Source: Candidatus Obscuribacteraceae bacterium (GTDB lineage Bacteria > Cyanobacteriota > Vampirovibrionia > Obscuribacterales > Obscuribacteraceae). From it: a DNA stretch of 64,000 nucleotides. The translations under genes and the position numbers were made by a program. Where the stretch lies: the NCBI GenBank assembly GCA_044229845.1, contig JBGASG010000014.1, positions 1-64,000 of the forward strand, in the 5' to 3' direction. Shown here one piece after another: positions 16,978 to 47,515 of the stretch. Under the pieces are notes generated by a model that was not told the DNA's origin, made no database searches, and saw only the letters and a list, made by a program, of their open reading frames with translations. Every line of letters starts with the position of its first letter. Within the stretch, counting starts at the first letter, position 1.

Positions 16978-18690
16978 TTACCGCTGTGATTGTCGATTGT
17001 GGTAGACGCAAAGCATTCCCCTCGGACTGTTTACCGCTTTCAGCGCCTTCCATCGCGAGTCTTGGCGTACCTGCTCTGAGACATAGATAGCAGTGCATTC
17101 GCTGTACGAATTATCGAATTTCCCTCTGGCCTCTTCTGGGCGGGCGAACACAGCAATCAGATCTACCGTTCGGCAAACTTCTTCGTATGCGGCCTTTGCC
17201 ACATCGCTGGCAGACTTGTTGGGATAAAGACCCTTCATGTGATACTCGTGTATGCTGAAGCAAGCAGACTCAGGGCAGTAGATGCCATATTTGTAGAATG
17301 CCTCGAGTTGCGGGTAAATTGTTTGCGTGTCAAACTCAAGAAACGATTTCGAGCCCGTCGAGGCGATCAATGAGGCCAACTCGACGTCAGTACTCTTCTG
17401 GAGTTGATGCTGACCGCCAGGATTATTGGTGATCCTGCGAAAGCGGTCGTATGAAAGAGCGGCGGAAGTAATGTTTAAGGCTAAGAGCGACAGACAAGTG
17501 CCTGCCACGAGCCAGCGACGAGAACCGTCTATCGGTCCAGGTACAAAAGCCATTATGGTCACAGCCGGCAGAAAATACGCAAGGGCGTGCTCGCCACCGG
17601 CAATGCGGCACACTAGACACGTCACGAGCACTAACGATAACGTAAACCACAGACAGACGAACGCGGGTCTCCAATTTTCTCTGCGTCGATCCCAATTCGC
17701 CAGATTGATCACCGAAAGAGTCAGTAAGACGGCCAGGACAGGCAGTCCAAACATTGCGAGAAGAGACACAGCAGTCCACTGCACGGATTCGATAACCGTA
17801 TGGTTAAGTGCGCAGCCTGCTACTTTGTAATAAGCCCACGAAGTCGGAAATGAGCTTATTGCAAATGCCATGCCGGGCAGCGCTCCCAGTAATGTGCATC
17901 CACAGGACAACACTCGCGCTTTCAGAGAAAGCTCTTTACGAGATAGCACCACGGGCAGTGCCAGGCACGAGAATGCCGCAACGTGAATAGTCGACCACCA
18001 TCGGCAGAGAACGGTGGCCGACAAAAAGCAGCCGAAAGCGAACACCCAGCGCTTTTGACCGGTCTCATGAAAAAACAAGAGCGAAACCGCGGCACAGCCA
18101 AGCGCGAAAGCGGCGGTCAGGTCAAGCCAGAACGCGGCAATTCCGTGCATGGGATCGTAGAGAAAGGGCATTGCAATGAAGGTAGTCATGGCAGTCAGCG
18201 CGAACAGCACCGAAGCGGTGCGGCGAGCGACCAGTGCCCCGAACAACACAAGGAGAGAAAACAAGAAAGGAATTTCTGTCCACAAATGTCCCGACTCTTC
18301 AATTAGCAATCGAGGAGCAAGCATAAGGTAGGGCAAGGTGCGCAGAGGGCAGCGATCATTAGATAAAAAATCGCTGCAGATAGTAGCCCAAGCGCCCTGC
18401 TGCAAGTACGCATGGTAGAGGGCAATATGCCACTTCAGATAAGCGGCGGCATCATAAAAATAGCCGTAATTCCGGACAAACAAGTTTTCCAGTCTGCAAC
18501 ATGACCAGACCAGCCACGCCGTAATAACAACGGCACACAGAAAAATGCTGCTTCCGCGAACAATTCCCAGCGGCGGACAATCGGAAACAAAATTGGCAGA
18601 CCCACTCAGGCCCGAGCCGCAGTGCTCGTCAGCTGTCCATTGTCCATGTCTACGCAGCATCCCTCGCCTGCATTTTGAAGCGCTAAGCAT
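16978..18690 (-). CDS. Multipass membrane protein, putative GT-C-fold glycosyltransferase (paralogue A)
   Basis: Many hydrophobic spans; YGYFYDAAAY after TM1; LYDPMHGIAAFWLD; soluble C-terminal domain. Function inferred. Confidence 0.7.
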   Translation of the reverse strand: MLSASKCRRGMLRRHGQWTADEHCGSGLSGSANFVSDCPPLGIVRGSSIFLCAVVITAWLVWSCCRLENLFVRNYGYFYDAAAYLKWHIALYHAYLQQGAWATICSDFLSNDRCPLRTLPYLMLAPRLLIEESGHLWTEIPFLFSLLVLFGALVARRTASVLFALTAMTTFIAMPFLYDPMHGIAAFWLDLTAAFALGCAAVSLLFFHETGQKRWVFAFGCFLSATVLCRWWSTIHVAAFSCLALPVVLSRKELSLKARVLSCGCTLLGALPGMAFAISSFPTSWAYYKVAGCALNHTVIESVQWTAVSLLAMFGLPVLAVLLTLSVINLANWDRRRENWRPAFVCLWFTLSLVLVTCLVCRIAGGEHALAYFLPAVTIMAFVPGPIDGSRRWLVAGTCLSLLALNITSAALSYDRFRRITNNPGGQHQLQKSTDVELASLIASTGSKSFLEFDTQTIYPQLEAFYKYGIYCPESACFSIHEYHMKGLYPNKSASDVAKAAYEEVCRTVDLIAVFARPEEARGKFDNSYSECTAIYVSEQVRQDSRWKALKAVNSPRGMLCVYHNRQSQR

Positions 18691-18697
18691 ATCCGCT

Positions 18698-18813
18698 AGA
18701 ATAGCTAGATCTGACTGCTCGGGTCTTTAGGCGGTTGTAATGAGAGCGCGGCGCTTTGTCAGCCACCCTCATTACAACAGGCTAAGGACTCTCTAATGCG
18801 TTAAAGCTATTGT
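18698..18813. promoter_or_regulatory. Back-to-back promoter-like motifs CATTACAAC-N4-TAAR-N19/20-GCTATTST for the divergent paralogues
   Basis: 11-bp inverted repeat GTTGTAATGAG (18734-18744)/CTCATTACAAC (18768-18778); -10-like TATTGT (18808-18813) 6 nt before ATG 18820; TATTCT (18703-18698, minus strand) 7 nt before ATG 18690. Confidence 0.55.
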
Positions 18814-18819
18814 TTCTGC

Positions 18820-20532
18820 ATGAATCAGGTTAGCGTTCTGACCGCTCAGAAGAGCCAAACACCCGACTCAGCTCGCGAGCGAGCGAGCCAGTCCAAGCAG
18901 GCGCCAAAATCGTCTAGGTGGGTTAAAGCCGAGCATTTTCTCTGCGTCTTGTTCGCCACCTCGATGACCGCTTGGTTGACCTACGCGTCGGTGCACATAG
19001 AGTCATTACATCTTGCCAACCATGGGTTCTTCTACGACCCGGCGACTTATCATTTTCAACATATCGACCTGTACCGTGCGTGCATTCGCGACGGAGCTTG
19101 GCCGACTCTTCTACATGAACTATCTACTAACTCGCGCTGCTTGCTGCGCACAGTACCCTACCTGTTGTTAGCGCCCTCTGCATTGAAGTCAGTTTTTGCC
19201 CATTTGTACACGGAGGTGCCTTTCCTCTGGTCGTTTCTCCTTTTGCTCACGTTCACCTCCTATTGGCGAACGAAATCTGCTCTGTTGGGCATTTTGCCGG
19301 CTACATGTTTTTCGTGCTTGCCCTGTCTCTACAATCCACAGTCCGGGCTGGGGGCTTTCTGGCTGGATTTGACGGCGTCACTGTCCATGGGTAGCGCAGT
19401 CTTGTGCTTGATTCGGTTTGCTGAAACCAAACACGCACGTTGGATGCTGCTCTTTGGAATATTCGCCTCAGCCACAGCGCTTAGCAGGTGGTCGGCCGCC
19501 TCATACTTGCTGCTATACGCACTCGCCGCCGTACCGATAGCCCTAATTCAACCGCAATTCCGCATTGGTAGTGTGATTAAGCCGCTCGCGCTGGCACTGC
19601 TGACTGCTCTACCTGGACTAGTTTTTACGTTCTACTGGTTCAAGGAGTGCACGAGTTACTATGCCCATTCCGGATATGCACTAAATTCACCAATCAGCGA
19701 CTCGTTTGCTTGGGCGTTCCGGACTCTCCAGCTGCAATTGAGCCCAATCGCCTCTCTTATCCTGGTTGTCCTAACGATGCTCCATTTAGGGCTGGCGTTC
19801 AGAAACCGCACAAATCGCCGAGTTACGCTCATTTCTGTCTGGTTTCCAGCCGCTGTACTACTCTTTGTTTGTGTCGTTTGCAGAGCGGTCGATGCTTTTC
19901 ATGCCCTGTTCTACATGGCACCAGCTTTAGTCGTTTCAGCATTTGCACCCATATCAAAGGAGCTGGCTGAACGCCATACCAAAGCACTGAAAATCTTTGC
20001 AGTCGCATTGATCGTCGGCTCAGTCGTCCTTATTAGTAATGCCTATGATGAACAGCGGCGTTTCGCATCTTCGGTAGACCCAGCCAGAACGATCCGCAAG
20101 AAGGCCGATGTCGCAATGGCAAAGTTCATTGCCCAAACCCAGGCTCCCACTTTCATTGAGTTCGACACACAAACGATAATGCCGCATCTAGAGGCGTTTT
20201 ATGCGCACGGCGTTTACTGTCTGCATCCGCACTGGTTTAGTGTTCACCCATTCCACTTTACCGGTCTATATCCGAACAAGACGATCGACCAGATGGCGGC
20301 TCGCAACTACTCAGATGTGGACAGAGACGTGGCTCTGGTGGCAGTGTTTCATAACCCGAACGATGCCTTAGCTCCGGGCTTGTTCAACAATCCGTATAGC
20401 TCGCAGGTATCAGCGTATATTTCGGCTCGTGTGCCCAAAGAACACCAATGGCAGTTTTTAGGTTCGGTTGCTACACCCAATGGGTTGCTCGATGTTTACC
20501 ACAATAGAGACTTTCGTGGGATAGGATTATGA
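18820..20532 (+). CDS. Multipass membrane protein, putative GT-C-fold glycosyltransferase (paralogue B)
   Basis: HGFFYDPATY, RTVPYLLLAP, LYNPQSGLGAFWLD, FIEFDTQT and GLLDVYHN. Confidence 0.7.
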   Translation: MNQVSVLTAQKSQTPDSARERASQSKQAPKSSRWVKAEHFLCVLFATSMTAWLTYASVHIESLHLANHGFFYDPATYHFQHIDLYRACIRDGAWPTLLHELSTNSRCLLRTVPYLLLAPSALKSVFAHLYTEVPFLWSFLLLLTFTSYWRTKSALLGILPATCFSCLPCLYNPQSGLGAFWLDLTASLSMGSAVLCLIRFAETKHARWMLLFGIFASATALSRWSAASYLLLYALAAVPIALIQPQFRIGSVIKPLALALLTALPGLVFTFYWFKECTSYYAHSGYALNSPISDSFAWAFRTLQLQLSPIASLILVVLTMLHLGLAFRNRTNRRVTLISVWFPAAVLLFVCVVCRAVDAFHALFYMAPALVVSAFAPISKELAERHTKALKIFAVALIVGSVVLISNAYDEQRRFASSVDPARTIRKKADVAMAKFIAQTQAPTFIEFDTQTIMPHLEAFYAHGVYCLHPHWFSVHPFHFTGLYPNKTIDQMAARNYSDVDRDVALVAVFHNPNDALAPGLFNNPYSSQVSAYISARVPKEHQWQFLGSVATPNGLLDVYHNRDFRGIGL

Positions 20533-22217
20533 CCAGCACCACGATCTCACCGCAATCATCTCTGTCAGCGGAAAGCGAGCCCCGAGCAGCCGATCTTGTG
20601 ACAAAGTCGCCTCTTGCCGGAACGGTTATGCTGGTGACTCTATCTGCAATGGCAACTATTTGGCTAACGTTCGCGGGAATCAAAATCGAAGGCGCATATC
20701 TGCACAACTATGGATTCTTTTTCGATCCGGCGGCATACTACCTGCACAACATCGAAGTGTATCGGCATTATGAGTCCCAGGGGATTCTGTCCACCCTAGC
20801 CCATCAGATCGCGCACAACCCTCGAGACCCAGCGCGAATCGTCCCTCATTTGTTATTTGCACCGCAGTCGTTGATTAGCCTGTGGGGGCACATGTGGACA
20901 CAGATGCCACTGGTCTTCGCCTTTCTCAGTTTGCTTTCAACAACAACTTGGGCCCGTACGCGATCGCTACTTCTGAGTTGTGCGGCGATCGCAAGCTTTG
21001 CGTCTATGCCATTTTTGTACGATCCGATGCATGGAGTAGCGGCCTACTGGCTGGACTTTACGCCAGCGTGCGCACTGGGTTGCCTTGCCCTTTGTCTTGT
21101 CAGATTCTTGATGCGGCCTCATCTCGGGTGGATGTTCTTCTTCGGGATTTTTGCATCGCTAGCCGCGTTGAACAGATGGTCATCATCCTTCTACGTCATA
21201 GCCTTCGCCGCGTTGGCATTTCCACTTGCCTTAACCGCACAGAACCGCTCGCAATCAATCGTCAAATGCGTCCTCGTAGCATTCTTAGGAGCAGCACCAG
21301 GATTGCTGTTTCTGTTCGGCTTTTGGCAGGAAAACAGCTGGTACTACAAAACGTTCGGTTTCGCGTTCGGGGCTCCAATTTCCCAATCGGTGTTATGGAC
21401 AAGCAAAGCGATCGTCAAAATGATTGGAGCGCCTTTGTTATGCACAATTCTAGCGATGTCACTTCTACATCTTAAGCGGCTTAAACAAGAGGCACGCGTA
21501 ATCGCATTATGCTGGTGGCTTCCTATCTCGATACTGCTGTTTGTTTGCTGTGTTGTAAAAGCCGTAGACGGATATCATCCGCTCGTTTATTTTGGCCCAG
21601 CCCTTGCCGTTTCAGCATTCGGTGCACTTAGAACCCCATCAGAACTTACTGGGAAATGGCTAGGAGCAACCGTCGCCATCCTGGTGTTGTGCCTTGCTGT
21701 CGGAGTGCATTCGTATGAGGTTGCGCGAAAAATAGCCCATAACCCCTCGCCAGAAGAAACCTTGAAAAAGAAAGCTGACGCGGCTCTGGCCGGGCTCATT
21801 ATCGAAACAAACTCTCGTTGCTTTACGGAGTTTGATACAGAATCAGTACGCCCGCAGATGGAAGTGTTCTTCTTTCATAAGCGTTTTTGCAACTGGGTCT
21901 CTTATTTCAGCATTCATGAGTCCTATCTAAAATTCATCTATGACAATGCGACGCCGCCACAAATGGCAGACCGCGCCTTCAAGCAACTTAAGAACAAAGT
22001 GGAACTGGTGGCAGTCTTTGCCAATGCGAGCGATGCTCTCAAGCCGGGCGTTTTCAATAACCAGTATAGTGCGGCTGTATCAAAAGGAGTGGCGGAACAA
22101 GTGGCAACAGACCCGGATTTCCACCTCACGGGGCACGTGCAGGCTCCCGCCGGATTGCTGGCAGTTTACAAAAACAACGCCTACAAGACTCTAGGCACCA
22201 CATTGAACCCTAAATAG
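20529..22217 (+). CDS. Multipass membrane protein, putative GT-C-fold glycosyltransferase (paralogue C)
   Basis: YGFFFDPAAY, LYDPMHGVAAYWLD, FTEFDTES and GLLAVYKN; ATGA overlap with paralogue B. Confidence 0.7.
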   Translation: MTSTTISPQSSLSAESEPRAADLVTKSPLAGTVMLVTLSAMATIWLTFAGIKIEGAYLHNYGFFFDPAAYYLHNIEVYRHYESQGILSTLAHQIAHNPRDPARIVPHLLFAPQSLISLWGHMWTQMPLVFAFLSLLSTTTWARTRSLLLSCAAIASFASMPFLYDPMHGVAAYWLDFTPACALGCLALCLVRFLMRPHLGWMFFFGIFASLAALNRWSSSFYVIAFAALAFPLALTAQNRSQSIVKCVLVAFLGAAPGLLFLFGFWQENSWYYKTFGFAFGAPISQSVLWTSKAIVKMIGAPLLCTILAMSLLHLKRLKQEARVIALCWWLPISILLFVCCVVKAVDGYHPLVYFGPALAVSAFGALRTPSELTGKWLGATVAILVLCLAVGVHSYEVARKIAHNPSPEETLKKKADAALAGLIIETNSRCFTEFDTESVRPQMEVFFFHKRFCNWVSYFSIHESYLKFIYDNATPPQMADRAFKQLKNKVELVAVFANASDALKPGVFNNQYSAAVSKGVAEQVATDPDFHLTGHVQAPAGLLAVYKNNAYKTLGTTLNPK

Positions 22218-22280
22218 CTAGTGCGGACGCGGCATAGCCGGAGTTGTGGTCTACAAATTCGTCCCAGCAGCACGCAACTA

Positions 22281-22324
22281 CATTACAACCGGTTAAATAA
22301 CTCTCCGTCGCAACTCGCTATGCT
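22281..22324 (+). promoter_or_regulatory. Third copy of the CATTACAAC...TAAA...GCTATGCT promoter-like motif
   Basis: CATTACAAC CGGT TAAA N19 GCTATGCT, upstream of the acyltransferase gene. Confidence 0.5.
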
Positions 22325-22354
22325 TTGGTTGGGAAATCAGTATGTGAGGTACGT

Positions 22355-23638
22355 GTGCAGCGCCCCGGCATCACTTATTGGCCGCAGCTGGATGGACTCA
22401 GAGCGTTGGCATTTCTGCTGGTCATGTTTCATCATCACTGGGCTCCTGCAAAGCTTTTTCCCTGGGACTTCATGCAAAAGTCGCTGGTTAAACTGGCTGA
22501 GTGGGGATGGCTGGGCGTTGATTTGTTCTTCGTGCTCAGTGCCTTCCTAGTCACACACTTACTGTGCGCGGAACTATCCCATAAGAGAGATATCTCGCTA
22601 TCAAAGTTTTACTTACGCCGAGCTCTGCGTATCTGGCCGCTGCTTTTCCTTGTCTTGACGATCGTTTGTTTTGTCTGCCCACTGTTCGCGCCGCACAAAG
22701 CATCACATTTGTACGGCCTATTTCTCACCAACATCGCACTGCCTTTGTACACTTTCTCCGGTAACTTTGCCCTGTCGGTGCACTTTGGAGACATGCAGAA
22801 CTATGCCACGGCGTCCGGATTGGATTTCATGTTGTTCGTTACGCTGTTGTGTCCCTTTTGGTCGCTTTGTATAGAGGAACAGTTCTATCTTTTTTGGGGA
22901 CTGGTGGTGAAAGCAGTAGGCAACATCCGAACACTTGCTTTTGTGACCGCGGCACTCATTGTAGTTGGTTTTTTTGGTCGCCTTTACTTGCTTATCAACC
23001 GCGGGGAAGCAGCCTTTACCTGGTACTACATGCATTCTCTTTGGCACCTGGATACCATCATGTTTGGTGCCATGCTGGCAGTAGTTTTAAATCGGCGTCC
23101 ACAGATTTTCAACTGTCTGCGCGCTGGTTGGCTGCCAGCGTTCTTGACGGTCTTCGCTATTTCGACTTTTCTAGGTATCGTAAATTTCGCACCGGGCATT
23201 GACACTGGCAGTTACTGGTTGGCACCGGTGATGACGACCGTTTCTCTGACCGGGGCGCTAATGGTGGCATTGGTATTGCACTGGTCACCCCTCTCAAAGC
23301 TCATGTCTTCGAAATGGCTCACCGAAATAGGAAAGTTGACCTTCGGTATGTACGTCTTCCACTATGCGATTATTTGGTACGCGCGTACCTATTTGAACCT
23401 GACAGTGACTGGTCTTAACGGAATTTGGAGCCTGATCGTATCGTTTGCACTCATCTACGGCGCAGCACGTCTTTCTTGGGAAGTTGTTGAAAAGCCCATG
23501 CAAAACCTACGCCGCCGATTCGCTTCTGTAGAATACTCAGCGGAACAAGCTCAGAACGACCCAAGCGCATCAATTGTGCCAGCCGCACCAAGCAACCAGC
23601 TCGAACAATTGGCTCTGAGTACTGGAACAACAAAGTGA
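22355..23638 (+). CDS. Acyltransferase family 3 (OafA-like O-acyltransferase)
   Basis: LDGLRALA, GVDLFFVLSAFL, FYLRRALRIWP and WSLCIEEQFY. Start placed at GTG 22355 behind GAGGT; the track uses TTG 22325. Confidence 0.9.
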   Translation: MQRPGITYWPQLDGLRALAFLLVMFHHHWAPAKLFPWDFMQKSLVKLAEWGWLGVDLFFVLSAFLVTHLLCAELSHKRDISLSKFYLRRALRIWPLLFLVLTIVCFVCPLFAPHKASHLYGLFLTNIALPLYTFSGNFALSVHFGDMQNYATASGLDFMLFVTLLCPFWSLCIEEQFYLFWGLVVKAVGNIRTLAFVTAALIVVGFFGRLYLLINRGEAAFTWYYMHSLWHLDTIMFGAMLAVVLNRRPQIFNCLRAGWLPAFLTVFAISTFLGIVNFAPGIDTGSYWLAPVMTTVSLTGALMVALVLHWSPLSKLMSSKWLTEIGKLTFGMYVFHYAIIWYARTYLNLTVTGLNGIWSLIVSFALIYGAARLSWEVVEKPMQNLRRRFASVEYSAEQAQNDPSASIVPAAPSNQLEQLALSTGTTK

Positions 23639-23644
23639 CACCGC

Positions 23645-24364
23645 ATGAGTACGGGTATCATAACGGCATTCCGAACTCGGCTATGGAATTGGCTAAAGGG
23701 TGCCGAATCTGCGGTGCCACCTGCTAGCGCAGACATTGCTATCAAAATTCGCGAGTTGGAAGCACGCTTGGATCAGGTTTCAGGCATTTCCTCTTGTAGG
23801 TGCGCAGCGACCAGGGACGTTGCGAATGACTGTGTCTTGGGCTCGGGCTCGGCGATCGCGCCCGAAGCAGCTATAGAAAATATTCGCAACGACAAAAAAT
23901 ATATCCGCATTGGCGAACACTCTTACATACGAGGTCGCCTTCTCACATACGGTCACGCTGGGGAAATTGACATCGGCGACTGGTGTTACATCGGAGCCCG
24001 CACCGAAATCTGGTCTATGTGCAAGGTGACAATCGGGAACCGAGTGTTAGTCTCACACGACGTCAATATCATAGATGGTTCGTCGCACTCTATGGATCCT
24101 CAAGAGCGTCACCAACATTTCAAAGCCATCTTGTTAAAGGGACATCCGTCGAATCCCTCGGAAGTCCCCGGGATTCAAGCAGCACCAATTGTTATCGAGG
24201 ACGACGCTTGGATCAGCTTCGGGGTAACCATTCTAAAGGGTGTGACTATCGGAGCGCGTAGCATCATCGCTGCTGGCTCAATAGTAACAAAGGACGTACC
24301 ATCGGACTGCTTATACAGATCCCGGGTGGAACCGGTAATCACGCCACTCAGCCAGAACAGATAG
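23645..24364 (+). CDS. Hexapeptide-repeat (left-handed beta-helix) sugar O-acetyltransferase
   Basis: IGEHSYI/IGDWCYI/IGNRVLV repeats; PIVIEDDAWISFGVTILKGVTIGARSIIAAGSIVTKDVP. Confidence 0.88.
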   Translation: MSTGIITAFRTRLWNWLKGAESAVPPASADIAIKIRELEARLDQVSGISSCRCAATRDVANDCVLGSGSAIAPEAAIENIRNDKKYIRIGEHSYIRGRLLTYGHAGEIDIGDWCYIGARTEIWSMCKVTIGNRVLVSHDVNIIDGSSHSMDPQERHQHFKAILLKGHPSNPSEVPGIQAAPIVIEDDAWISFGVTILKGVTIGARSIIAAGSIVTKDVPSDCLYRSRVEPVITPLSQNR

Positions 24365-24365
24365 A

Positions 24366-26078
24366 TCAGATCTGCGCCTTGGTTTTAGGGTGCTGAAGTT
24401 CTGTGTTTTGGTAAACAGACAAAAGACCGGTAGGACTCGTTACGCAACCGACAAATTTAAAACTCGGATCGGCAGCAACCTTCGCGGATACAGCCTGGGC
24501 AATGGCTGCACTCAAACGGCTGGGGAATGCACCGGGTTTAGTGGCATCCTCTGGCTTAGCGAAAACAGCGACCAACTGAACATGCTTTTTGGTTTTCTTG
24601 TAAATGCTCTCGATCATGGCTGCGCGGTCCTGTCCCGGATACATTCCCTCGAGGTAAGCATCGTATCGGCTAAAGATAGGGAACGCAGAACAGGACCGCC
24701 CGGTCTTAAAAAATGACTCCAGGTGCGGGTTGACAGTTTCGTCATTGAACTGCAAAAACGACTTGGCGCCAGAGCTTACGATCAGGTTTGCCAGACTTTC
24801 GTCGCACCGCTTGGCAAGGCGCGCTGCAGGTGGAGCCGCATTTGCAAATTTGCGGCTGACATCATATGCAGCGGCAATCAAGAATGTTGAGCAGATAAGC
24901 AAGAGTGCACTCAGAGCATTAACCACTTTCTGATTCCAATGCCGAAAATCAATTGGAATCATCGCAGCTACAATTAGTGCCGGACCAAAGTAGACCAGCG
25001 GGTGCGTTCCGCTTACCGCTCTTACCACGAGGCAAACAAACAATGCCAAAGACATCGGTAGCCACAAAGCTATGGACTGCAACTTCAGCTGTTCTTTGTT
25101 TTTTGTTTGAACAACATTGACCACCATCAGTGTCAGTAGCAGCGTCAAAACAGGAACTCCCATAATCCGGACAATCGCTTGCATGGTCCACTCGATAGAC
25201 TGGCTAAGGGGTGCGCCAAAAGCAAAGCCGTAGGTTTGGTAGTACGTTCGGTTCAATTCATAGAAAGCGAGAACAAAGACAAGCCCCGGCAATGCCCCGG
25301 CAAACATGACAAAGAGCGCTTTCAGCAGTTTCTTACCATCCAGCCCAAATACGCTCAACAGCGTTAACGGCAAAGCAGCGGCGAGAAAAGAGAGTAGATA
25401 GAACGCCGATGAAAATCTCGCGAGAGCAGTTGCCGAGAAAAAAGCCCCGGTTCCTAGCAGCCAAATCCAATGTCGTTGCTGGCTGTAAGTTATTAAACAG
25501 AGTGCAGCGGAACCTAAGCAACATGCAGCAGTGAAGTCCAGCCAGTATGCCCCTAACCCCACTCCCGGATCGTATAGAAACGGTAATGCCGCAAACACTG
25601 TCATTGTGGAGAGCGAGAACAGCAAATTGCGCGTGCGCAAATAGGCGACTGAGGACAACAGCGCTAAGAACGCCCATAAGAATGGCGTCTGCGTCCACAG
25701 GTGTCCGTCCATACGGACCAGCAGGTCTGGTGCTACTAGCAAATAGGGCACTGTACGCAGTGGATGCCTGGCATTAAATTGCACTTCCTGCTGGATGGCA
25801 GCCCATGCACCGTTCGCTTTCGCATAATCGTGCAGATGGATGTTGTGGACATAGTATGCGGATGGATCGCAGAAAAATCCGTAGTTGCGCAGATACGTTG
25901 ACTCAATACGCCACGGCGCGACTGTCAACCAAGTACTGATGATGGTGGCAACCACCAGAAGCAGGCTAATCACCAGCTTAGACACTGGCGCCGCTGATTC
26001 CGCATTTGTACACGATATTTGAGCCTGAGCTTTTGGCATGGCAGGCGCGAACAAGTGACTCATAGAACCTGTATCCAC
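24366..26078 (-). CDS. Multipass membrane protein, putative GT-C-fold glycosyltransferase (paralogue D)
   Basis: YGFFCDPSAY, LRTVPYLLVAP, LYDPGVGLGAYWLD and GLLSVYQN. Confidence 0.7.
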   Translation of the reverse strand: MDTGSMSHLFAPAMPKAQAQISCTNAESAAPVSKLVISLLLVVATIISTWLTVAPWRIESTYLRNYGFFCDPSAYYVHNIHLHDYAKANGAWAAIQQEVQFNARHPLRTVPYLLVAPDLLVRMDGHLWTQTPFLWAFLALLSSVAYLRTRNLLFSLSTMTVFAALPFLYDPGVGLGAYWLDFTAACCLGSAALCLITYSQQRHWIWLLGTGAFFSATALARFSSAFYLLSFLAAALPLTLLSVFGLDGKKLLKALFVMFAGALPGLVFVLAFYELNRTYYQTYGFAFGAPLSQSIEWTMQAIVRIMGVPVLTLLLTLMVVNVVQTKNKEQLKLQSIALWLPMSLALFVCLVVRAVSGTHPLVYFGPALIVAAMIPIDFRHWNQKVVNALSALLLICSTFLIAAAYDVSRKFANAAPPAARLAKRCDESLANLIVSSGAKSFLQFNDETVNPHLESFFKTGRSCSAFPIFSRYDAYLEGMYPGQDRAAMIESIYKKTKKHVQLVAVFAKPEDATKPGAFPSRLSAAIAQAVSAKVAADPSFKFVGCVTSPTGLLSVYQNTELQHPKTKAQI

Positions 26079-26344: not shown

Positions 26345-27652
26345 ATGACCACAACGACGAAAACTAAGCCGCCGCTGAGAGCTGACACTGCAATTGGTGC
26401 GAGCCCAGAAGCACTCAGAAACACAACTCTAGTACAAGAGCCCGTGTTGGGTTTCGCTTGGCTTGGACGATTGTTTGCACCCAAGGCTTTTCTAGTTAGT
26501 GCAGTACTCGGGTTTGTGATTTGTTGCGGACTCGGCTACTTAACTACTTTGAAAAATCAATATGGCGACATCCCTAGATTCGGCGTCTACGTCGGTCCAC
26601 AGGCATCGCTTTTCCCAACCGCCAGCCAGCTTCTCGCGTACACCAAGGCGCATGCACGAGATGACCAAATTCTCGTCGTGGTGGGCGGTAGCTCTGTTAT
26701 GAATGGCGTTGGACAGTCGAACGAGCAACTTTGGACGAAGAAACTTCAGCAACGCCTCGGCGACAAGTTTGCGGTTGTGAACTTAGCCATGAGGTCCTGC
26801 AGCACGTACGAAGTTGCTTGTTTTATCGCAGAAGCCATGCTCAAAGAGCACCGGAAAGTCATCTTTGTGACCGGTACTCAGGCAGCCTATGGCTGGAACG
26901 TCATTGGACGCCCGCCTTACGCGCACTATTATTGGGACGCCAAATTTCATGACTTATTGCTCGACTTTCCTGAACGCGACCAAGCGCTGAGAGATTCTGA
27001 GAAGGACCTGTCCAGCTTCGGCTGGACACCGGAAAGCCTCACCGAACTCAAATTAGGCGAATGGCTAAATTCCAAGCTATATCAGTACGAACTCTGGAAC
27101 ACAGTAGGCTACAGATATTTCTTCACCAGCTACTCGGCAGTGGCAGCGGGTGCGACAGAACTCAAAGGCGTTTATTGGCCGCGAAAAAAGCTGCCCAAAA
27201 ACATGGAAGCAGAGGAGACGTTCCCACTTCCGAGCGAAGAATTTGCAAAAAATTTCTTCCCAACTGTACTCTCGAAGTTTGTTGTCTGGAATGAAAAATC
27301 CAAGCAGTGGGAGAAGAAGGTCGACACTTGGAACGCAGCTGAAGAAACGCTCCGCACCAATCTGGTGCGGCGGCTGCGCCCACACACGCTTTTGGTATTG
27401 AGCTATTACAGCCCATATTTCCGTCACAAGTACCTCACCAGACCACAACAACTCAGTGAACAAAAGGCCTACAGTTTGACCCAAGATCTTTTCAAAAAAG
27501 AAGGTGTTCGCTCTATTCGTTCTGGAGACGCCTACGATGCAGCAGATTTCCGAGATCCAATTCACCTGAGCCCAAGTGGCGGTCAGAAACTCGCGATTGA
27601 TGTATCAAAAGAGGTCACGGAAATGGCAAAAGAGTTGGGGTATCTTAAATGA
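26345..27652 (+). CDS. Membrane-anchored SGNH-like protein (DltD/AlgJ-like acyl transferase)
   Basis: One N-terminal TM (AFLVSAVLGFVICCGLGYL); nucleophile block VVGGSSV; VVNLAMRS; C-terminal DxxH motif FRDPIHLSPSG. Confidence 0.65.
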   Translation: MTTTTKTKPPLRADTAIGASPEALRNTTLVQEPVLGFAWLGRLFAPKAFLVSAVLGFVICCGLGYLTTLKNQYGDIPRFGVYVGPQASLFPTASQLLAYTKAHARDDQILVVVGGSSVMNGVGQSNEQLWTKKLQQRLGDKFAVVNLAMRSCSTYEVACFIAEAMLKEHRKVIFVTGTQAAYGWNVIGRPPYAHYYWDAKFHDLLLDFPERDQALRDSEKDLSSFGWTPESLTELKLGEWLNSKLYQYELWNTVGYRYFFTSYSAVAAGATELKGVYWPRKKLPKNMEAEETFPLPSEEFAKNFFPTVLSKFVVWNEKSKQWEKKVDTWNAAEETLRTNLVRRLRPHTLLVLSYYSPYFRHKYLTRPQQLSEQKAYSLTQDLFKKEGVRSIRSGDAYDAADFRDPIHLSPSGGQKLAIDVSKEVTEMAKELGYLK

Positions 27653-27852
27653 GCCAAATTCAGGCAGCCGATACGAATTCAACCAGTCGGATGAACCGCG
27701 TAAGACCTGTTTTCTTCGCCCTCCCATCCAGCCATCGTTTTACCGGAATCGCCCTGTCCATAGCCTTAGGACTGGCGGTAGGAATACTCTCGCATTACAT
27801 TTTATACAGACTCTCCCTACCAGCAAAGCCTTTCATATACGCCGCTTTCTAA
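27649..27852 (+). CDS. DltX-like single-TM microprotein with C-terminal FIYxxF motif
   Basis: ATGA overlap with the SGNH gene; TM GIALSIALGLAVGILSHYIL; ends PFIYAAF-stop. Confidence 0.7.
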   Translation: MSQIQAADTNSTSRMNRVRPVFFALPSSHRFTGIALSIALGLAVGILSHYILYRLSLPAKPFIYAAF

Positions 27853-29571: not shown

Positions 29572-31530
29572 ATGGCTGTCCTATCAGATCGCAAAGATGC
29601 TCCGAAATCCCAGCCGGCTGCTTCGCCCACGCTGGGCGCAAAGGGTACCAGTTTTCCTTCACTTGCCGGCTTAAGTTCAGCCTTCCGCAGCAAAACTCTC
29701 GCACGGCTGCTGACCAGCGACTGGTTTGCGCTGTTGATGCTGCTGGCGCTGCAACTCAGGCTGATGTGGGGCATTTGGGATTTCAAAGACATCTCGCTGG
29801 GAGATTCGCCATCGTATTTCCAGCTGGCTTCTGAGGGGCTCGAAAGCCATCGGGTTCACTTTGCCTGGTCACCACTTTACACCATAACTGGTGCGGTACT
29901 GCTTCACTTCCAGAACCATCCGCTGATGTTTACGACAGGTATGCGGTTGATACTGGTGGCACTCATCACCACCATGGTTTTCTCAATCATGCGCCGGTTG
30001 CTCCCACTGCCGGCGGCATGGTTGGCCTCCGCATGGTTCGCCAGCCTGCCCATATACTTCGACACTCTTTACGAAGTCCATCTGTTTGGCTGTTTGCCGA
30101 CCCTGAGCGCCTGGCTCATTCTGCTCACCTTTCCGGGACGGTGGGGACGCGGAATCGCTTTGGCAACTTTTGCCCTCGGGGCATGTCTCATACGCAATGA
30201 GCTGTCGATTCCATGTGCTATCTTCGGGACGTGTGTACTTGTGTACGAACTCCTCCAGTACAGAGAGCTGAGACGCACAGACAAGCTATCGAACCGCTCC
30301 ATCACCGGTTCGCGGCTACCAGGACTCTTGATACCGTATTTGGTACCGCTTTTGGTCAGCGCGACGATTGTGGGAATCGTCTATGAGCGCTCGACCGCAC
30401 ACTTCCCACTGCTGTCAAAGCATTTCAAAATCAAGCACACTCTTAACGTCTGCCAAATTTATGCTGCCAACTACCAGCAGCGTCATCCTGAGTGGACAAA
30501 TGATCCCTGGACCGGCTATTCCGAACTCATGAAATCGACATTCGGGAAAGTACACGTGACCATGGGCGAGGCGATAGCGCGCAACCCGCGGGCAATGCTC
30601 GACTATTTTGCCTGGAACTCACACCTGATACCATCCGGACTGCAGGTTCTTCTGTTCAACGCTGCTTCCGGGAAGGACAACCCAGACTATGCTCAGGTCA
30701 TCGTCGACGCTCCAAAAGCCATCACATTATCTTGTCTGGTCCTGGCAGCGTTGCTTTCAGGGGCGATCAAAATCTCGCAAGAATTGCCCGACGTAAAACA
30801 ATGGCTCATAGATAGGCAGCGTTATTTTTGCGTGCTGGCCATGACTGCGAGCGCTTGTTGCTCGTTGTTTGTAATGCTGATGCAGCGTCCACGCCCGTCC
30901 TATATTCTTACTTTGGGAGTTTCAATCATTGCTCTGACAGCTTTCTGTTGCTGGCGCCTAGTTCGTAATCTCAAGTTACAACTGCCGGCCGCAATGCTTC
31001 CGACGGTGATGATTTGGATGGTAGTGTTCGCCCCGCCTTACTATGCGATGCTTAGCGCCAATCGCCGTGTCATGTTCGACTATTACACGTTTCTCGTCCC
31101 TTTCAAGCCATTATTCAAGCAGACTCAGGGCGCTATCGTGTTGCCTGACCACGGCATCGATATGGCTCTCTACGTGATAGGCGGCAAAGCCTGTGATCAA
31201 TTCAAATATTGGCGCTCATTTTCTTCGCTGGGCGGTACGCCGAAAAGCGCCACCCAAATTTGCAACACTCTGGATAAAGAGTTCGCAAATTACGTGCTCT
31301 TCGCAGAAGACAACATCGATCAGCCGTCTGTCTCGGATTTCATGCGTAGAGCAAACTCCAAAGGCTGGAGAAATATCGGATTGCAGCGCACGCCGGGAAA
31401 GAGGTTTGCTCTCTTCCAGCGGATTGAGCCCGTCAACTTGTTTGTTTCTGCACCGGCAAAAAACACTCCCGTGAAAGCCGGTTCTGGCGCACCCAGAGAT
31501 CCTGCGTCCAACCGGGCCGGGCAGCTATGA
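29572..31530 (+). CDS. Multipass membrane protein, putative GT-C-fold glycosyltransferase (distinct family)
   Basis: GDSPSY and WSPLY after TM1, many TM spans, large loop; directly follows the GT2-methyltransferase gene. Confidence 0.6.
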   Translation: MAVLSDRKDAPKSQPAASPTLGAKGTSFPSLAGLSSAFRSKTLARLLTSDWFALLMLLALQLRLMWGIWDFKDISLGDSPSYFQLASEGLESHRVHFAWSPLYTITGAVLLHFQNHPLMFTTGMRLILVALITTMVFSIMRRLLPLPAAWLASAWFASLPIYFDTLYEVHLFGCLPTLSAWLILLTFPGRWGRGIALATFALGACLIRNELSIPCAIFGTCVLVYELLQYRELRRTDKLSNRSITGSRLPGLLIPYLVPLLVSATIVGIVYERSTAHFPLLSKHFKIKHTLNVCQIYAANYQQRHPEWTNDPWTGYSELMKSTFGKVHVTMGEAIARNPRAMLDYFAWNSHLIPSGLQVLLFNAASGKDNPDYAQVIVDAPKAITLSCLVLAALLSGAIKISQELPDVKQWLIDRQRYFCVLAMTASACCSLFVMLMQRPRPSYILTLGVSIIALTAFCCWRLVRNLKLQLPAAMLPTVMIWMVVFAPPYYAMLSANRRVMFDYYTFLVPFKPLFKQTQGAIVLPDHGIDMALYVIGGKACDQFKYWRSFSSLGGTPKSATQICNTLDKEFANYVLFAEDNIDQPSVSDFMRRANSKGWRNIGLQRTPGKRFALFQRIEPVNLFVSAPAKNTPVKAGSGAPRDPASNRAGQL

Positions 31531-33254
31531 AGACAGCGCCAGAACCGACCGCCGCAAACTGCCAGACTGCAACTTTTCCTTCAGCGACCACGTCCGGTAT
31601 TCAGCAAGAGAATTGGAAGTGGCAAAACTTCGCCAGTCCGGCGCTATTTGTTTGCCTGGGAGTGGCGCTGATCTGTATTGTGGGGCAAATCGGCTACCAC
31701 GTCCAAACTCTGCACTTCGCCCACTATTCGTACATATATGATCCAGTTTCCTACATGTATATGAACGCAAAAACGTATTTGCGGCTTCAAGATCAGGGAC
31801 TGATTAACACCATCGGTTACGAGTTGCAGAAAAGTTGCTACCCGTGGCGCACTATTCCATTGTTGCTCGTGGCACCAGGTCTTCTGGCAAAGCCACTTGG
31901 GCACATGGCCACAAGCCTGCCCCTAATGGGCTTCTTTGCCGCTCTGCTTGGCTGGACATCATATCGATTCGGCGGCAGCCGCTGGTACGCAGCCGCCGCA
32001 ATGTTTGTCTTACTTGCTATTCCGGGTTTGTTCGATACCAAATTCGGGGTCGGACAAAATTGGCTGGACTTCGCGTCAGCCTGGACGGTGGGAGTGTGTT
32101 ACCTGTGCGCACTCAATCATGAGCGAACCCTGAAAACGAGATGGCTTGTCTTGGCGGCAATAGCACTTACTCTGGGAGCGTGGTGCCGCTATGTCAGTTG
32201 CGTCTATGCTGTTTTAATTTGCGGACCGATGCTGGGATACAACTGGGTAACAGCGTGGCGCAGCCGAAGGCTAACTGCAAGCGCCACCGGCAAGCAAGTA
32301 TTGACTCTTGTGCTGTCCACGGTCTTGCTCGCAGGTCCATTTGCAGTCAGCAGATTTGCCGGCATGTATGTCCGATACACAGAGGTAGGCTACGGACTCA
32401 ACCAGACCGTTGAAGCAGCCTACATCGGGTTGAGCAGTGTCTTGCTGACAGCGCTTCTCACTGTGCCCTTTATCGCGTTCGTTGCCACCATCGCGCTGGC
32501 GATTCTTCTACTTACTCAGTTTCGCGTTACGGCTAGTTTGCTTGTAAATCGTGTGTGGCCAGTGGTGTCCGTGCCGCTTTTGCTTGTACTGGTGCTGCGA
32601 GCTCCCCAGAACGGCTATGTATTGTGGCATGAAATTCCTGTCCTAATCGCGGCAGTAGTTGTTCCTTTGGGAGCGGTCAAGCACAGCCCCATCGTGCCTC
32701 GCATTCTGGCAACAGCAGTACTGGTGGGGACATCAGTGCTCTCCTGGAACAACATTCACCATCACTTGGAGACAGCCGCACATCCATCACTGGACGTTGC
32801 TGAGCTGAAACTTTTAGATCGGCAATTGGCTGATGAGATAGTCAAGCTTCCTGCCAATTCAACCTGGTCTCCATTTTTTGCCGAGTACCACGTAATACCA
32901 AATATGGTGGCATTCTATTCCGACCATAGACTGGCAAGCATTCCAGAGCCGGGACTCTTTACCGAGCACAAAGCATTCTGGGTGCAAGATTATAAAACAG
33001 ACAATCCAGCCGTCATCAGCGCGCGTGTTCTGCAAGGTCTCGAGGCAAACTGCGCAATGGCTGTCGTCTACGATTCGCCGGAATTTATCGACCGCGCCCA
33101 GCAATTAGCTATCTTAGACAACGCGATCAGCATCGAAGTTTCGCGCCAAGTACTCAAGCACCTCGCTGGCAATCACAATTGGCAAAAAACATCTACGATT
33201 AATACCAAACGATTCGGGACGTTGGCAATTTACACGCGGAAAGACGGCCGGTAA
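31527..33254 (+). CDS. Multipass membrane protein, divergent GT-C-like paralogue E
   Basis: YSYIYDPVSY, PWRTIPLLLVAP, GH, LFDTKFGVGQNWLD, LDRQLA and GTLAIY correspond to motifs of paralogues A-D. Confidence 0.65.
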   Translation: MKTAPEPTAANCQTATFPSATTSGIQQENWKWQNFASPALFVCLGVALICIVGQIGYHVQTLHFAHYSYIYDPVSYMYMNAKTYLRLQDQGLINTIGYELQKSCYPWRTIPLLLVAPGLLAKPLGHMATSLPLMGFFAALLGWTSYRFGGSRWYAAAAMFVLLAIPGLFDTKFGVGQNWLDFASAWTVGVCYLCALNHERTLKTRWLVLAAIALTLGAWCRYVSCVYAVLICGPMLGYNWVTAWRSRRLTASATGKQVLTLVLSTVLLAGPFAVSRFAGMYVRYTEVGYGLNQTVEAAYIGLSSVLLTALLTVPFIAFVATIALAILLLTQFRVTASLLVNRVWPVVSVPLLLVLVLRAPQNGYVLWHEIPVLIAAVVVPLGAVKHSPIVPRILATAVLVGTSVLSWNNIHHHLETAAHPSLDVAELKLLDRQLADEIVKLPANSTWSPFFAEYHVIPNMVAFYSDHRLASIPEPGLFTEHKAFWVQDYKTDNPAVISARVLQGLEANCAMAVVYDSPEFIDRAQQLAILDNAISIEVSRQVLKHLAGNHNWQKTSTINTKRFGTLAIYTRKDGR

Positions 33255-37749: not shown

Positions 37750-38352
37750 TCAAGATACGGCAGCGCACGGATTCCCCAGTGCTGTGACCCCAGCGCCGAC
37801 ATCCTTGATCACCACGCTGCCAGCTCCTACTACTGCCCACTGTCCCACTTTCGAGCCAGGTCTGCCGACCGAGCCAATGCCTACCAACGCTCCTTCTCCC
37901 ACCTGGCACTGTCCACCTAACACCACGTGTGGTGCCAGGTGAACGTGATCACCGATCGCGCAATCGTGCTCCACTATCGCGCCAGTGTTAATGATTGCGT
38001 TTCTGCCGATGGTCGACTCAGCATTGATTATCACTCCGGCGCCAATGTAAGACCCTGGCGCAACGTTTGCAGTCTTGGAAATCAATGCCTGTGGATGAAT
38101 CGCCGAGCGAGCGATCCATCCATAGCCCAGTGCCGCTTCGAACAACTTTTTGCGGAGCTGGTTATTTCCGATTGCGACTATAAATTCATGCTGCCCGGAT
38201 AAAGAGGACTGGCAGGCGTGAACCGGCCGGTTGTAAAACTCTTTCCGCTCGGTCAGGGGATCGATGAACCCGTCAATGGCTACACTGGCGCTCGCAAAAT
38301 TCTCTGCGACGACCTTCGCATGCCCACCGGTGCCAAAAACATATAGCCCCAA
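37750..38352 (-). CDS. PglD/NeuD-like sugar acetyltransferase (LegH role likely)
   Basis: GTGGHAKV, VAIGNNQLR and INTGAIVEHDC. Confidence 0.87.
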   Translation of the reverse strand: MGLYVFGTGGHAKVVAENFASASVAIDGFIDPLTERKEFYNRPVHACQSSLSGQHEFIVAIGNNQLRKKLFEAALGYGWIARSAIHPQALISKTANVAPGSYIGAGVIINAESTIGRNAIINTGAIVEHDCAIGDHVHLAPHVVLGGQCQVGEGALVGIGSVGRPGSKVGQWAVVGAGSVVIKDVGAGVTALGNPCAAVS

Positions 38353-38367
38353 AGCGCAATCCTCAGC

Positions 38368-39033
38368 TTACATGTTCAAGAAATTTGTGAGCAACTTGAG
38401 TCCCACTTCGCCGCTTTTTTCGGGATGAAACTGACAACCGAAAACCATGTCCTGATTTACTATCGCGGTGATACGTCGGCCGTTATAGTAGGAATCTGCC
38501 ACGCGTACGCAGTTGTCGTCAGGCACTACGGAGTAAGAATGCACGAAATACACATGTGGAGACTCGCCCAAATTATGTAGCAGCGCCTCGCCCTTGTGGT
38601 TATCGGCACTGGGACGAGCGGCACACTCGGATGAGCGGTGCAAAGCATTCCAGCCGACATGGGGAATCTTATGCCTGCTGCCATCGGTGCCCGTGTCCGG
38701 TATGGCAACGACTTTGCCTCGAATCAGATTGAGTCCTTCGTGGTCTCCAAATTCTTCTGCTGTCGATAGCAGAAGCTGCATGCCCAGACAAATGCCGAGG
38801 ATCGGCCGGCCGCTTTTTGCATATTCTCGTAGAGGTTCCACCAAACCGTTTTCGCGAAGTCCCTGCATGCCGTCGGCGAAGGCTCCTACGCCCGGAATAA
38901 CTACTCGCTCTGCAGAGGCTATGTCGCTGGCAGCACTGGAAAGATGCACATCAGCCCCGCAAACCGTCAAAGCTCGCGTAACGCTCATAATGTTACCAAG
39001 CCCATAATCAACAACAAGAGCGCGTTTGCTCAT
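38368..39033 (-). CDS. HisH-like glutamine amidotransferase subunit (WbuY-like)
   Basis: DYGLGN, PGVGAF, GICLGMQ, YFVHSY and QFHPEKS; glycan-locus context. Confidence 0.9.
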   Translation of the reverse strand: MSKRALVVDYGLGNIMSVTRALTVCGADVHLSSAASDIASAERVVIPGVGAFADGMQGLRENGLVEPLREYAKSGRPILGICLGMQLLLSTAEEFGDHEGLNLIRGKVVAIPDTGTDGSRHKIPHVGWNALHRSSECAARPSADNHKGEALLHNLGESPHVYFVHSYSVVPDDNCVRVADSYYNGRRITAIVNQDMVFGCQFHPEKSGEVGLKLLTNFLNM

Positions 39034-39881
39034 GGCGTGCGCACCCTCAATCCGGCGCCGCGGGCAGTTTCTCGCAGCTCGGACAAGTTGCAGCGTCCGT
39101 AGTGCAAGGCGTCCGCAATGGCGACGGCATCGGCACAGCCTTCTTGAAACACTGCAACCAGATCGCCCGCTTTCCCCAAGCCGCCGCTGGCAATAACGGG
39201 CACCGGTACCGATGTGGCTACCGCCCGAGTCAGTTCGACATCAAACCCTTTGCGTGTACCCTCTTGGTCTACAGAGGTCAGCAAAATCTCTCCGGCGCCC
39301 CGCTGCACCCCTTCTATAGCCCATTCGACAACACTGCGCCCTGTGCGATCTCTTCCATTGTTAACCAGCGCTTCCCAACCATCTCGTCTCCGTTTGGCTT
39401 CGATAGAAAGAACCACGCATTGGGAACCGTACGAGCGCGCAACTTCTTCTATCAATGCCGGATTTTCCGTGGCGGCAGTATTGATAGCCACTTTGTCGGC
39501 TCCTGCTCGTAAGAGAACACGAACATCATCGACCGAACGTATGCCACCACCGACGGTTATGGGCACAAAGATGCTCTCAGCCGTGCGGCGAACTATTTCA
39601 ACAAGATTGTTGCGTCCATAGAGACTAGCCACCGTATCGATATAGACAATTTCGTCGATCCCCTGCTGGTAGTATTGCTGAGCGAATTCTTGCGGATCGC
39701 CGACGACACGCAGACCTTCCAGGTGCATCCCCTTGATTAAGTTCGCGCCTTTAACGTCGAGACGGGCAATGATCCGTAAAAGTGAACGGTTGGGCGACGA
39801 CAATTTCGTTACTGGATCGCAACTAGTCGGATCGGTTTCCTCATTCAATCTGGGTTGCTGTTGATGCTCAAGAGACATCAT
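39030..39881 (-). CDS. HisF-like cyclase-fold subunit (WbuZ-like)
   Basis: RIIARLDVKG, VASLYGRN, VGGGIR, GAGEILLTSVDQEG and IASGG. Confidence 0.9.
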   Translation of the reverse strand: MMSLEHQQQPRLNEETDPTSCDPVTKLSSPNRSLLRIIARLDVKGANLIKGMHLEGLRVVGDPQEFAQQYYQQGIDEIVYIDTVASLYGRNNLVEIVRRTAESIFVPITVGGGIRSVDDVRVLLRAGADKVAINTAATENPALIEEVARSYGSQCVVLSIEAKRRRDGWEALVNNGRDRTGRSVVEWAIEGVQRGAGEILLTSVDQEGTRKGFDVELTRAVATSVPVPVIASGGLGKAGDLVAVFQEGCADAVAIADALHYGRCNLSELRETARGAGLRVRTP

Positions 39882-40960
39882 TACACCGGTGAGAAGCTAG
39901 TTGCGCTTGGACCATCAGCCATGGTTTCTTGGAAAGATTGCCGAACACTCAAATAATCCTCCACCCTCCCAATATCGGCCCACTCTTCACGTACTGGAAA
40001 TGCCGCAGTTGGCTGTCCATCGTCTATGAGCTGAGTAAAGAGGGTCGTCATATCGAGATTAGCACCCTGTTTGACGTATCTGAGTACCGACGGCTCGAGC
40101 GCGTATATACCGGCATTGACAAAGAAGTCCTGCATTGGCTTTTCGTCGATCTGTCGAATGCGCGTTCCGTCCATGCGCACCACCCCATAAGGGACCTGGA
40201 AATTGTACTTGAACACACACATCGTGGCTTCAACTTGCTGCTCTTTATGAAACTGCAGTAGCTGCCTAAAGTTGACGCCGGTTACCAGGTCGGCATTCAT
40301 AACGAGCAGGGTTTCTGTTGGCAAATCGGGTAACAGTCCTAGTGCGCCGGCGGTTCCCAGCTGGACGGGCTCGTCCAGATACTCGATTTGCACCCCCCAT
40401 TTCTCTCCCGTGCCGAAATACTCTTTCACCATCTCAGCTTTGTAATGCACGGTGACGAAAAATCTGTGAAACCCATGCTCGGCAAAGTTATCGATGATGC
40501 GCTCCAGGATTGGTTTGTTGCCCACCTCAAGCAGTGGCTTGGGCACATTTTCTGTGAGCGGCCTGAGTCGCGTTCCCAACCCGCCAGCCATGAGCATCAC
40601 CCAATGCTCGCTGTTCTTGCTTTGCTTCAGTTCGTGCAGAAAACGCACAGCCACCACACGATTAGAGGAGTCGACCACGGGAATCTGTCTGACAGACATG
40701 TTTTTCATTCTGCTCAAAATCGACAGATGAGGTTCGTTTTCCAGAGCGACAATCGGGTGATGATTCATCACTTCCTGAACATTGGCATCCGGTGTTATTC
40801 CGGACAACAGCGCTCGTCTGATATCGCCATCGGTAACGGTTCCGAGAAGTGTATTGTTGGGCCCGACGACCAGTGCAATCTGTTCTGCCCCGCGGTCAAT
40901 GATTTCCAGGGCCGTGAGCACGCTTGCTTCCGGGCTAACACTAAATGTTTTCCAGCGCAC
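39881..40960 (-). CDS. CBS-domain sugar-phosphate nucleotidyltransferase (PtmE/LegX-like)
   Basis: GTVTDGDIRR (CBS); MAGGLGTRLRPLT..PKP; LGTAGAL; VNAGIY. Confidence 0.88.
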   Translation of the reverse strand: MRWKTFSVSPEASVLTALEIIDRGAEQIALVVGPNNTLLGTVTDGDIRRALLSGITPDANVQEVMNHHPIVALENEPHLSILSRMKNMSVRQIPVVDSSNRVVAVRFLHELKQSKNSEHWVMLMAGGLGTRLRPLTENVPKPLLEVGNKPILERIIDNFAEHGFHRFFVTVHYKAEMVKEYFGTGEKWGVQIEYLDEPVQLGTAGALGLLPDLPTETLLVMNADLVTGVNFRQLLQFHKEQQVEATMCVFKYNFQVPYGVVRMDGTRIRQIDEKPMQDFFVNAGIYALEPSVLRYVKQGANLDMTTLFTQLIDDGQPTAAFPVREEWADIGRVEDYLSVRQSFQETMADGPSATSFSPV

Positions 40961-40967
40961 CGGCAGA

Positions 40968-44418: not shown

Positions 44419-44440
44419 CGAGGCTCTCCCAACTCATAAG

Positions 44441-46888: not shown

Positions 46889-46936
46889 ATGGCGATTTTG
46901 CTTTGCACCAGCAGTACTTAAAGCGAGGAGTCCGAG

Positions 46937-47513: not shown

Positions 47514-47515
47514 GG

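Follow-up and report, generated by a model that had tools for sequence, protein, structure and literature searches.

What can an acyl-shuttle microprotein serve when no enzyme that could load it is encoded beside it? We considered this question for the opening 64 kb of contig C5 in a Candidatus Obscuribacteraceae assembly (5.16 Mb, 88% complete), a stretch of 64,000 nucleotides referred to here as the window, in which a DltD-like SGNH protein is encoded together with a microprotein ending in FIYAAF. The nearest named relatives are Candidatus Obscuribacterales, and the host is accordingly presumed to be a cyanobacterial relative that does not photosynthesize. A preliminary description of this DNA had noted that no MBOAT, dltA or dltC gene adjoins the pair, and none does in the window. 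It had described the shuttle as stand-alone; the pairing of SGNH protein and shuttle is borne out, but a third gene, an MBOAT gene on contig C3, had been missed. We hold it at roughly 60% probable that the pair is the acceptor-side half of an MBOAT/SGNH acyl relay that is split in this genome. The features on which the argument turns are as follows.

26345..27652, forward strand: DltD-like SGNH protein, a predicted periplasmic acyltransferase of 435 aa with one N-terminal membrane anchor
26480..26545, forward strand: SGNH membrane anchor, at about residues 46-67; the sole hydrophobic stretch, and a helix at 46-67 in the structure model
26693..26695, forward strand: Ser117, the proposed nucleophile, in the G-G-x-S of block I; present in 171/171 homologues
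27554..27565, forward strand: Asp404-x-x-His407 of block V; present in 167/171 and 168/171 homologues
27649..27852, forward strand: predicted free acyl-shuttle microprotein of 67 aa, or 53 aa from a second ATG at 27691
27748..27804, forward strand: single TM helix of the microprotein, residues 34-52; hydropathy 2.09, with four K/R before it and two after
27832..27849, forward strand: C-terminal FIYAAF hexapeptide; F, Y and terminal F in 36/36 homologues
27838-27840, forward strand: Tyr64, the proposed acyl carrier within FIYAAF

The SGNH frame extends from an ATG at 26345 to a TGA at 27652 (a start at an upstream GTG would give 437 aa), and the microprotein frame from an ATG at 27649, which overlaps the SGNH stop in ATGA, to a TAA at 27852. 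GGSS corresponds to SGNH residues 114-117 and DPIH to residues 404-407, and the microprotein ends in PFIYAAF; the two frames, their overlap and the three motifs all lie where they had first been placed. The catalytic serine of GGSS is the second one, Ser116 being found in only 74 of the 171 homologues, and judged by this conservation the triad is Ser117/Asp404/His407.

The microprotein behaves as a coding gene, since comparison of its last 33 codons with those of locus L023 shows 8, 2 and 24 differences at first, second and third positions; across 19 genes of the family the differences (1896/1029/3363) likewise fall mainly on third positions. Its ending exceeds chance, as only seven of the 118,183 stop-to-stop frames of at least 25 aa in the genome end in FIYxxF, and all seven are MBOATs or shuttle peptides (five long MBOATs, the window microprotein and its paralogue on contig C3), while a looser aromatic-x-Y-x-x-aromatic ending occurs in ten. 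The earlier characterization as a DltX-like free peptide agrees with the invariance of the tyrosine among the 36 aligned homologues, in which G27, R40, P44, F48, Y50 and F53 (numbered from the second ATG) are invariant, and in which the tail is preceded by one helix and a family signature, HYxLYRxxLPxxP. Lysine and arginine are richer on the N-terminal side of the helix in 20 homologues, richer on the C-terminal side in five and equal in 11, and the microprotein therefore probably lies N-in, C-out; a mean of 16 residues follow the helix, as compared with 13-18 in three DltX-type controls. Pfam DltX (PF12459) did not match the microprotein, though it matched the controls, and profile comparison by hhalign aligned the motif only, both with three DltX proteins (4%, 11 columns) and with fused MBOAT tails (41%, 12 columns).

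Comparison across genomes indicates that the SGNH protein and the microprotein are two parts of a conserved module, the third part of which is a short MBOAT that lacks a fused FxYxxF tail. Among 80 loci collected with the C3 MBOAT as query, some of them near-duplicates or recurring in the family survey described below, 57 have a complete tail-less MBOAT, accompanied by the peptide in 52, by the SGNH protein in 55 and by both in 50; four of the seven tail-less loci without a full module stop inside the SGNH gene at a contig end. Neither partner was found in the other 23 loci (21 with a fused-tail MBOAT and two cut). The host's family (Obscuribacterales-like) was surveyed through 104 genomes, of which 28 have the full set of three genes, one has only the peptide, located at a contig edge, and 75 have no member of the set, most of the latter carrying long MBOATs; here the short clade was delimited at 559 bits or more, a threshold chosen after the gap down to 382 had been seen, one frameshifted copy (G125) was counted, related genomes do not count as independent observations, and some of the surveyed genomes went into the profiles. 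For 30 of the 34 peptides in this survey both partners are encoded no more than 2 kb away, in the orders MBOAT-SGNH-peptide (26), MBOAT-peptide-SGNH (3) and SGNH-peptide-MBOAT (1), so that the gene pair, whose conservation had been proposed as a check, is indeed conserved, within a three-gene module. The peptide also turns up in the family to which an Opitutaceae-type locus belongs, where 38 of 201 genomes have it. A more distant module of tail-less MBOAT, SGNH protein and peptide (PFVYVGF) at L150:3975-7186 suggests, from its sequence, that further free-shuttle clades exist.

The window SGNH protein, the sole member of its family in the assembly, has no match to Pfam (including Pfam DltD), NCBIfam or PDB sequences; 414 clusters match it at E<=1e-30, and a cluster look-up yielded hardly any names. 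Its structure model (built from 23 sequences; pLDDT 83, pTM 0.82) nevertheless retrieved only DltD chains at Foldseek ranks 1-10 (best E 2.5e-4, TM about 0.4). Together with the triad kept in homologues, this upholds the SGNH fold first suggested for the gene. In VIA the model aligned with DltD 7dxm over 281 residues (Z 13.6, rmsd 4.5), while the alignment with PatB was confined to a 169-residue core. Of the families originally proposed for comparison, DltD is thus matched by fold, and PatB over the core only. In hhalign comparisons, whose sets were small, the SGNH profile scored 31.7% against three DltD and 0.5% against two AlgJ-like proteins; it reached 96.5% (E 7e-10, 260 columns) against the DUF1574-like SGNH partners of the genome's fused-tail MBOATs, and Atlas lists DUF1574/LB_356 clusters among its relatives. 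Profile searches in which 6-7 candidates were scored per genome matched only the host among 251 genomes of its own phylum, three of 251 Verrucomicrobiota genomes and, in the phylum to which a Planctomycetota locus belongs, none of 301; a metagenome scan gave at least two loci. Two proteins, P0169 and P0163, are MBOAT-SGNH fusions, one with a short-clade MBOAT and one with a different MBOAT, and neither has an FxYxxF tail. P0121, P0152 and P0160 are fusions of an SGNH family member with a recurring domain (motif GYDxWG), which is also present in membrane proteins flanking Opitutaceae modules.

SGNH proteins are mostly hydrolases, according to PMC12148441, and the DltX tail is also bound by the esterase DltE, according to PMC13653941. 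By analogy with DltE, the window protein could be an esterase that removes acyl groups, the peptide being its acceptor or regulator, and small GDSL hydrolases do tie with DltD in VIA Z against the model. They cover only about 170 residues, however, and DltD alone aligns over the full 281. Moreover, the SGNH family member is the only SGNH protein in nearly all module loci and thus appears to fill the transferase slot. We regard the esterase reading as very unlikely.

Where, then, is the MBOAT? The preliminary description had proposed that MBOATs lacking a fused FIYxxF tail be listed, and among the six MBOATs of the genome, five of which have a fused tail, there is one assembled case (C3:2269-3468, 399 aa), directly upstream of the peptide paralogous to that of the window. 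Over this part, contig C3 and locus L022 share 95% identity, but on C3 the SGNH gene that separates MBOAT and peptide is missing in its entirety. The deletion junction is bridged by contigs in 3/3 DNA runs of different studies, which indicates that the loss is real and not an assembly error. Between the C3 MBOAT and its L022 orthologue there are 79 silent and three replacement codons (31 and 2 on C3's own branch), and this purifying selection may be older than the deletion. In the C3 copy of the peptide the first ATG is lost and the helix has a Gly to Asp change, so that the C3 locus may be decaying.

The window SGNH protein is the sister of the L022/L023 pair and is not nested in it (53% identity), and locus L023, which holds a full module, adjoins genes homologous to the window's contig. 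Sequencing run X6 contains a second short MBOAT, 84-92% identical and some 7 kb downstream of the peptide of the C3 locus (L001:1500-3228), that is absent from the assembly; run X1 contains the same diverged piece, and a contig of run X10 joins the end of an MBOAT gene to the start of an SGNH gene. The second MBOAT and the X10 junction suggest that another module may exist outside the 88% complete assembly. The loader of the window peptide may accordingly be the C3 MBOAT or an unassembled paralogue, and in trans either way. Loading in trans had been one of the options named at first; given a tail-less MBOAT without SGNH partner on C3 and none beside the pair, it is, on genomic grounds, the likely route.

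The particular loader first suggested, the MBOAT at 62611, fared less well. This gene has an FIYFRF tail of its own at its end (contig position 64038) and an AlgJ-like SGNH partner gene after it, features that make it an unlikely loader. The two form a self-contained AlgI-like and AlgJ-like set from window position 62611 to contig position 65644 (L002:2612-5645), preceded by an 806-aa GT-C-like gene. Loading by this enzyme, by the stand-alone AT3 protein at 22325 or by a carbamoyltransferase would have the advantage that the first two are encoded in the same glycan locus as the pair, and AT3 genes lie near four other module loci. Against it, the peptide occurs in none of 21 fused-tail loci, the 75 family genomes that lack peptide and SGNH protein mostly have long MBOATs, and no carbamoyltransferase was found in the assembly by a search whose control matched in 4/14. 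A loader of this kind therefore seems most improbable.

Pairs of SGNH protein and peptide without an adjoining MBOAT are found elsewhere. Ten Opitutaceae-family genomes have two peptide matches, and seven were examined (of the others, one was already in the locus set and two had weak second matches). Two complete modules are present in three of the seven, a contig end cuts into a fourth, and the last three contain a pair with no MBOAT in the 8 kb read. For these pairs the distance to a full module is 31 kb, 86 kb or one contig, and the triads are intact; the three pairs form one clade (SH-aLRT 90) and may for this reason represent a single event. Other arrangements include two SGNH-peptide pairs behind one MBOAT (L026) and, in two genomes, MBOAT and peptide together with a lone SGNH gene elsewhere. 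L113:5929-8444 has MBOAT and SGNH genes without the peptide, with two peptides elsewhere in the same genome, and so represents the remaining, third way of splitting the module. In G107 the peptide stands beside a 49-aa SGNH remnant, an indication that orphans can decay.

Such decay, seen in G107 and in the C3 peptide, raises the alternative that the window pair has lost its MBOAT and is now a non-working remnant of a module. The usual adjacency of both partners in the family survey would fit this, as would the full module at the related locus L023. On the other hand, both window frames are intact with all catalytic residues present, relatives at 91, 67 and 60% are full length, at least 90% of the stretch's words are held by 14 DNA runs from nine studies, and the same genome retains a tail-less MBOAT without an SGNH partner. 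These observations make a remnant unlikely. RNA runs hold at most 46% of the words, counted over contigs and not a measure of expression, and a scan for promoters and terminators gave chance-level results only.

The sequence of the short MBOAT bears on the acyl donor. Its catalytic His is followed by 63-83 residues (n=61), compared with 138-220 in fused-tail MBOATs (n=32), a difference of about 80 residues; DltB has 68-69 (3/5 measurable). The donor face reads RDY(V/I)YIPLGG in all ten short MBOATs displayed and in nearly all fused-tail MBOATs, as opposed to RD(Y/F)xYMR in the four DltB displayed, and the IPLGG face is shared by short MBOATs, AlgI/PatA-type and HHAT enzymes. The DltC-docking helix of DltB (M302/V305/I306/M309, according to PMC11035591) aligns to a gap and IPLG in the short MBOAT. 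Against the DltB model TIGR04091 the C3 short MBOAT scored 180 bits with a cut-off of 375, a long C3 MBOAT scoring 188. The short clade is firm in the tree (100/99), with Verrucomicrobiota rows nested among Obscuribacterales rows, and its sister may be DltB (support 65/32, not rejected) or the host's fused-tail MBOATs (p-AU 0.48).

Searches for DltA and carrier proteins across 72 module loci (795 kb) recovered the Dlt controls and gave no match of DltA strength and no carrier match apart from one weak AMP-binding match, the carrier search being insensitive, as the genome's own ACP used as query matched nothing, controls included. The lack of dltA and dltC observed beside the pair thus extends, within this sensitivity, to the module loci generally. 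The absence of linked DltA/DltC and the AlgI/PatA-like donor face point to acyl-CoA as the donor, which we consider likely from these sequence features. The same relay could be fed by a carrier-protein thioester as in Dlt, either a fatty acyl-ACP or an aminoacyl carrier encoded elsewhere: the MBOAT is of DltB-like length, DltD is the closest solved fold of the SGNH protein, a sister relation with DltB survives the tree tests, and the genome has three PP-binding and seven AMP-binding matches over cut-off. Yet the best DltA-like score in the genome is 101 bits, compared with at least 236 in Dlt-type loci, no ligase or carrier is linked in the 72 loci, and IPLGG stands in place of the docking helix. 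A carrier-bound donor is accordingly improbable.

The surroundings of the pair concern the likely acyl target. Pfam identified Wzm/Wzt (55454, 56238), AT3 (22325), NeuB (40968), GT2 and GT4 genes in the window, in accordance with the Wzm/Wzt, AT3 and nonulosonate context described before; its GT-C-like element is supported through Atlas for one protein. The latter is the one flanking membrane protein tested (24366-26078), whose nearest clusters are of PMT/GT39 type, and Pfam matched none of the 570-aa membrane proteins that flank the pair. Five paralogous membrane proteins of 562-575 aa, without family-level Pfam match, are encoded at 16978-26078 and 31527-33254, an unusual GT-C-like expansion within one glycan locus, and a sixth paralogue is on contig C8. 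A nonulosonate-type cluster occupies 37750-48229, with NeuB, an epimerase, a WbuX amidotransferase and HisF/HisH paralogues; a transposase comes next, at 48381. The pair shares the lower GC of the locus (0.50 vs 0.555). Glycan genes lie near the module in 22/30 Verrucomicrobiota loci, a count for which 5/22 glycan queries were derived from Verrucomicrobiota loci themselves, in 4/15 Obscuribacterales loci, in 3/18 fused-MBOAT loci and in 8/60 random windows. A surface glycan is a plausible target, a general envelope polymer being compatible as well, and we give about even odds that the target is the glycan of the window's own Wzm/Wzt locus.

Returning to the split relay, we hypothesize that the tail-less MBOAT (C3:2269-3468 or an unassembled paralogue) would take an acyl group, likeliest acetyl or another short acyl, from acyl-CoA; its His would activate Tyr64, so that the acyl is placed, on the periplasmic side of the membrane, on this microprotein residue. 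The tail of the microprotein would then pass the acyl to Ser117 of the SGNH protein, which would transfer it to a hydroxyl of a periplasmic or surface polymer, most plausibly the glycan of the Wzm/Wzt locus. By analogy with DltX/PatA chemistry, as presented in PMC12148441, acyl intermediates on Tyr and Ser are very likely. More tentatively, a tail-less acyl-CoA MBOAT might serve as a shared loader, with cassettes of SGNH protein and shuttle exchanged together with glycan loci and plugging in in trans, each directing acyl groups to its own polymer; the free shuttle would have split off from a fused-tail MBOAT by gene fission, with an origin separate from that of DltX. We consider this wider scheme possible, though rather doubtful.

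The module resembles DltB-DltX-DltD, as laid out in PMC12148441, in its short tail-less MBOAT, its separate one-helix FxYxxF microprotein and its membrane-anchored SGNH protein of DltD fold. Unlike Dlt, it has no linked DltA/DltC, its MBOAT falls below the DltB cut-off and is without the DltC-docking helix, its microprotein is not Pfam DltX and has its own HYxLYRxxLP signature, its hosts are diderms, and in the host genome it is divided over two loci. With the AlgI/PatA and AlgJ/PatB type it shares the IPLGG donor face, the FxYxxF shuttle and, to judge from sequence signature and gene context, probably the lack of a carrier protein and the use of acyl-CoA. It differs from that type in that the tail is a separate gene (57/57 complete module MBOATs have no fused tail) and in that its SGNH protein is not AlgJ-like. 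The closest profile relatives of the window SGNH protein are the DUF1574-like partners of fused-tail MBOATs on C3, C10 and C15, whose MBOATs, unlike those of the module, carry the tail. Two more DUF1574-like SGNH proteins are encoded on C16.

A free shuttle peptide in a diderm is also found in the Dlt-type locus of a Klebsiella plasmid (L111), which encodes DltD, a 40-aa FEYQKF peptide, an MBOAT, an AMP-binding protein and an ACP; in contrast to the window module it has ligase and carrier, and its MBOAT groups with DltB. On a Ralstonia plasmid (L109:3623-7132), a fused-tail MBOAT, an ACP and a DltA-like ligase combine a carrier donor with a fused shuttle. PMC12148441 defines the shuttle motif as FXYXXF and describes non-Dlt MBOAT/SGNH pathways as being without both the carrier protein and a DltX-like microprotein. 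Our literature search found no description of a carrier-free system with a free shuttle, although the supplement of Schultz 2023 may list cases; a preprint on Leptospira small ORFs proved to have no bearing on the free-shuttle arrangement. What is probably new is the splitting of the module in the host genome and its probable use in trans.

A microprotein without a carrier would complete the four pairings of donor type with shuttle type, the remaining three being observed in L105/L106/L111, in L109 and in the fused AlgI type. More generally, tail-less MBOATs and unannotated SGNH proteins of uncultured diderms have overlooked partner genes coding for 40-70 aa, perhaps far from the MBOAT. With a natural split form of PatA/AlgI, loader, shuttle and transferase could be swapped singly, and one could ask directly whether partner specificity is set by the shuttles and why the shuttle of Dlt is kept separate.
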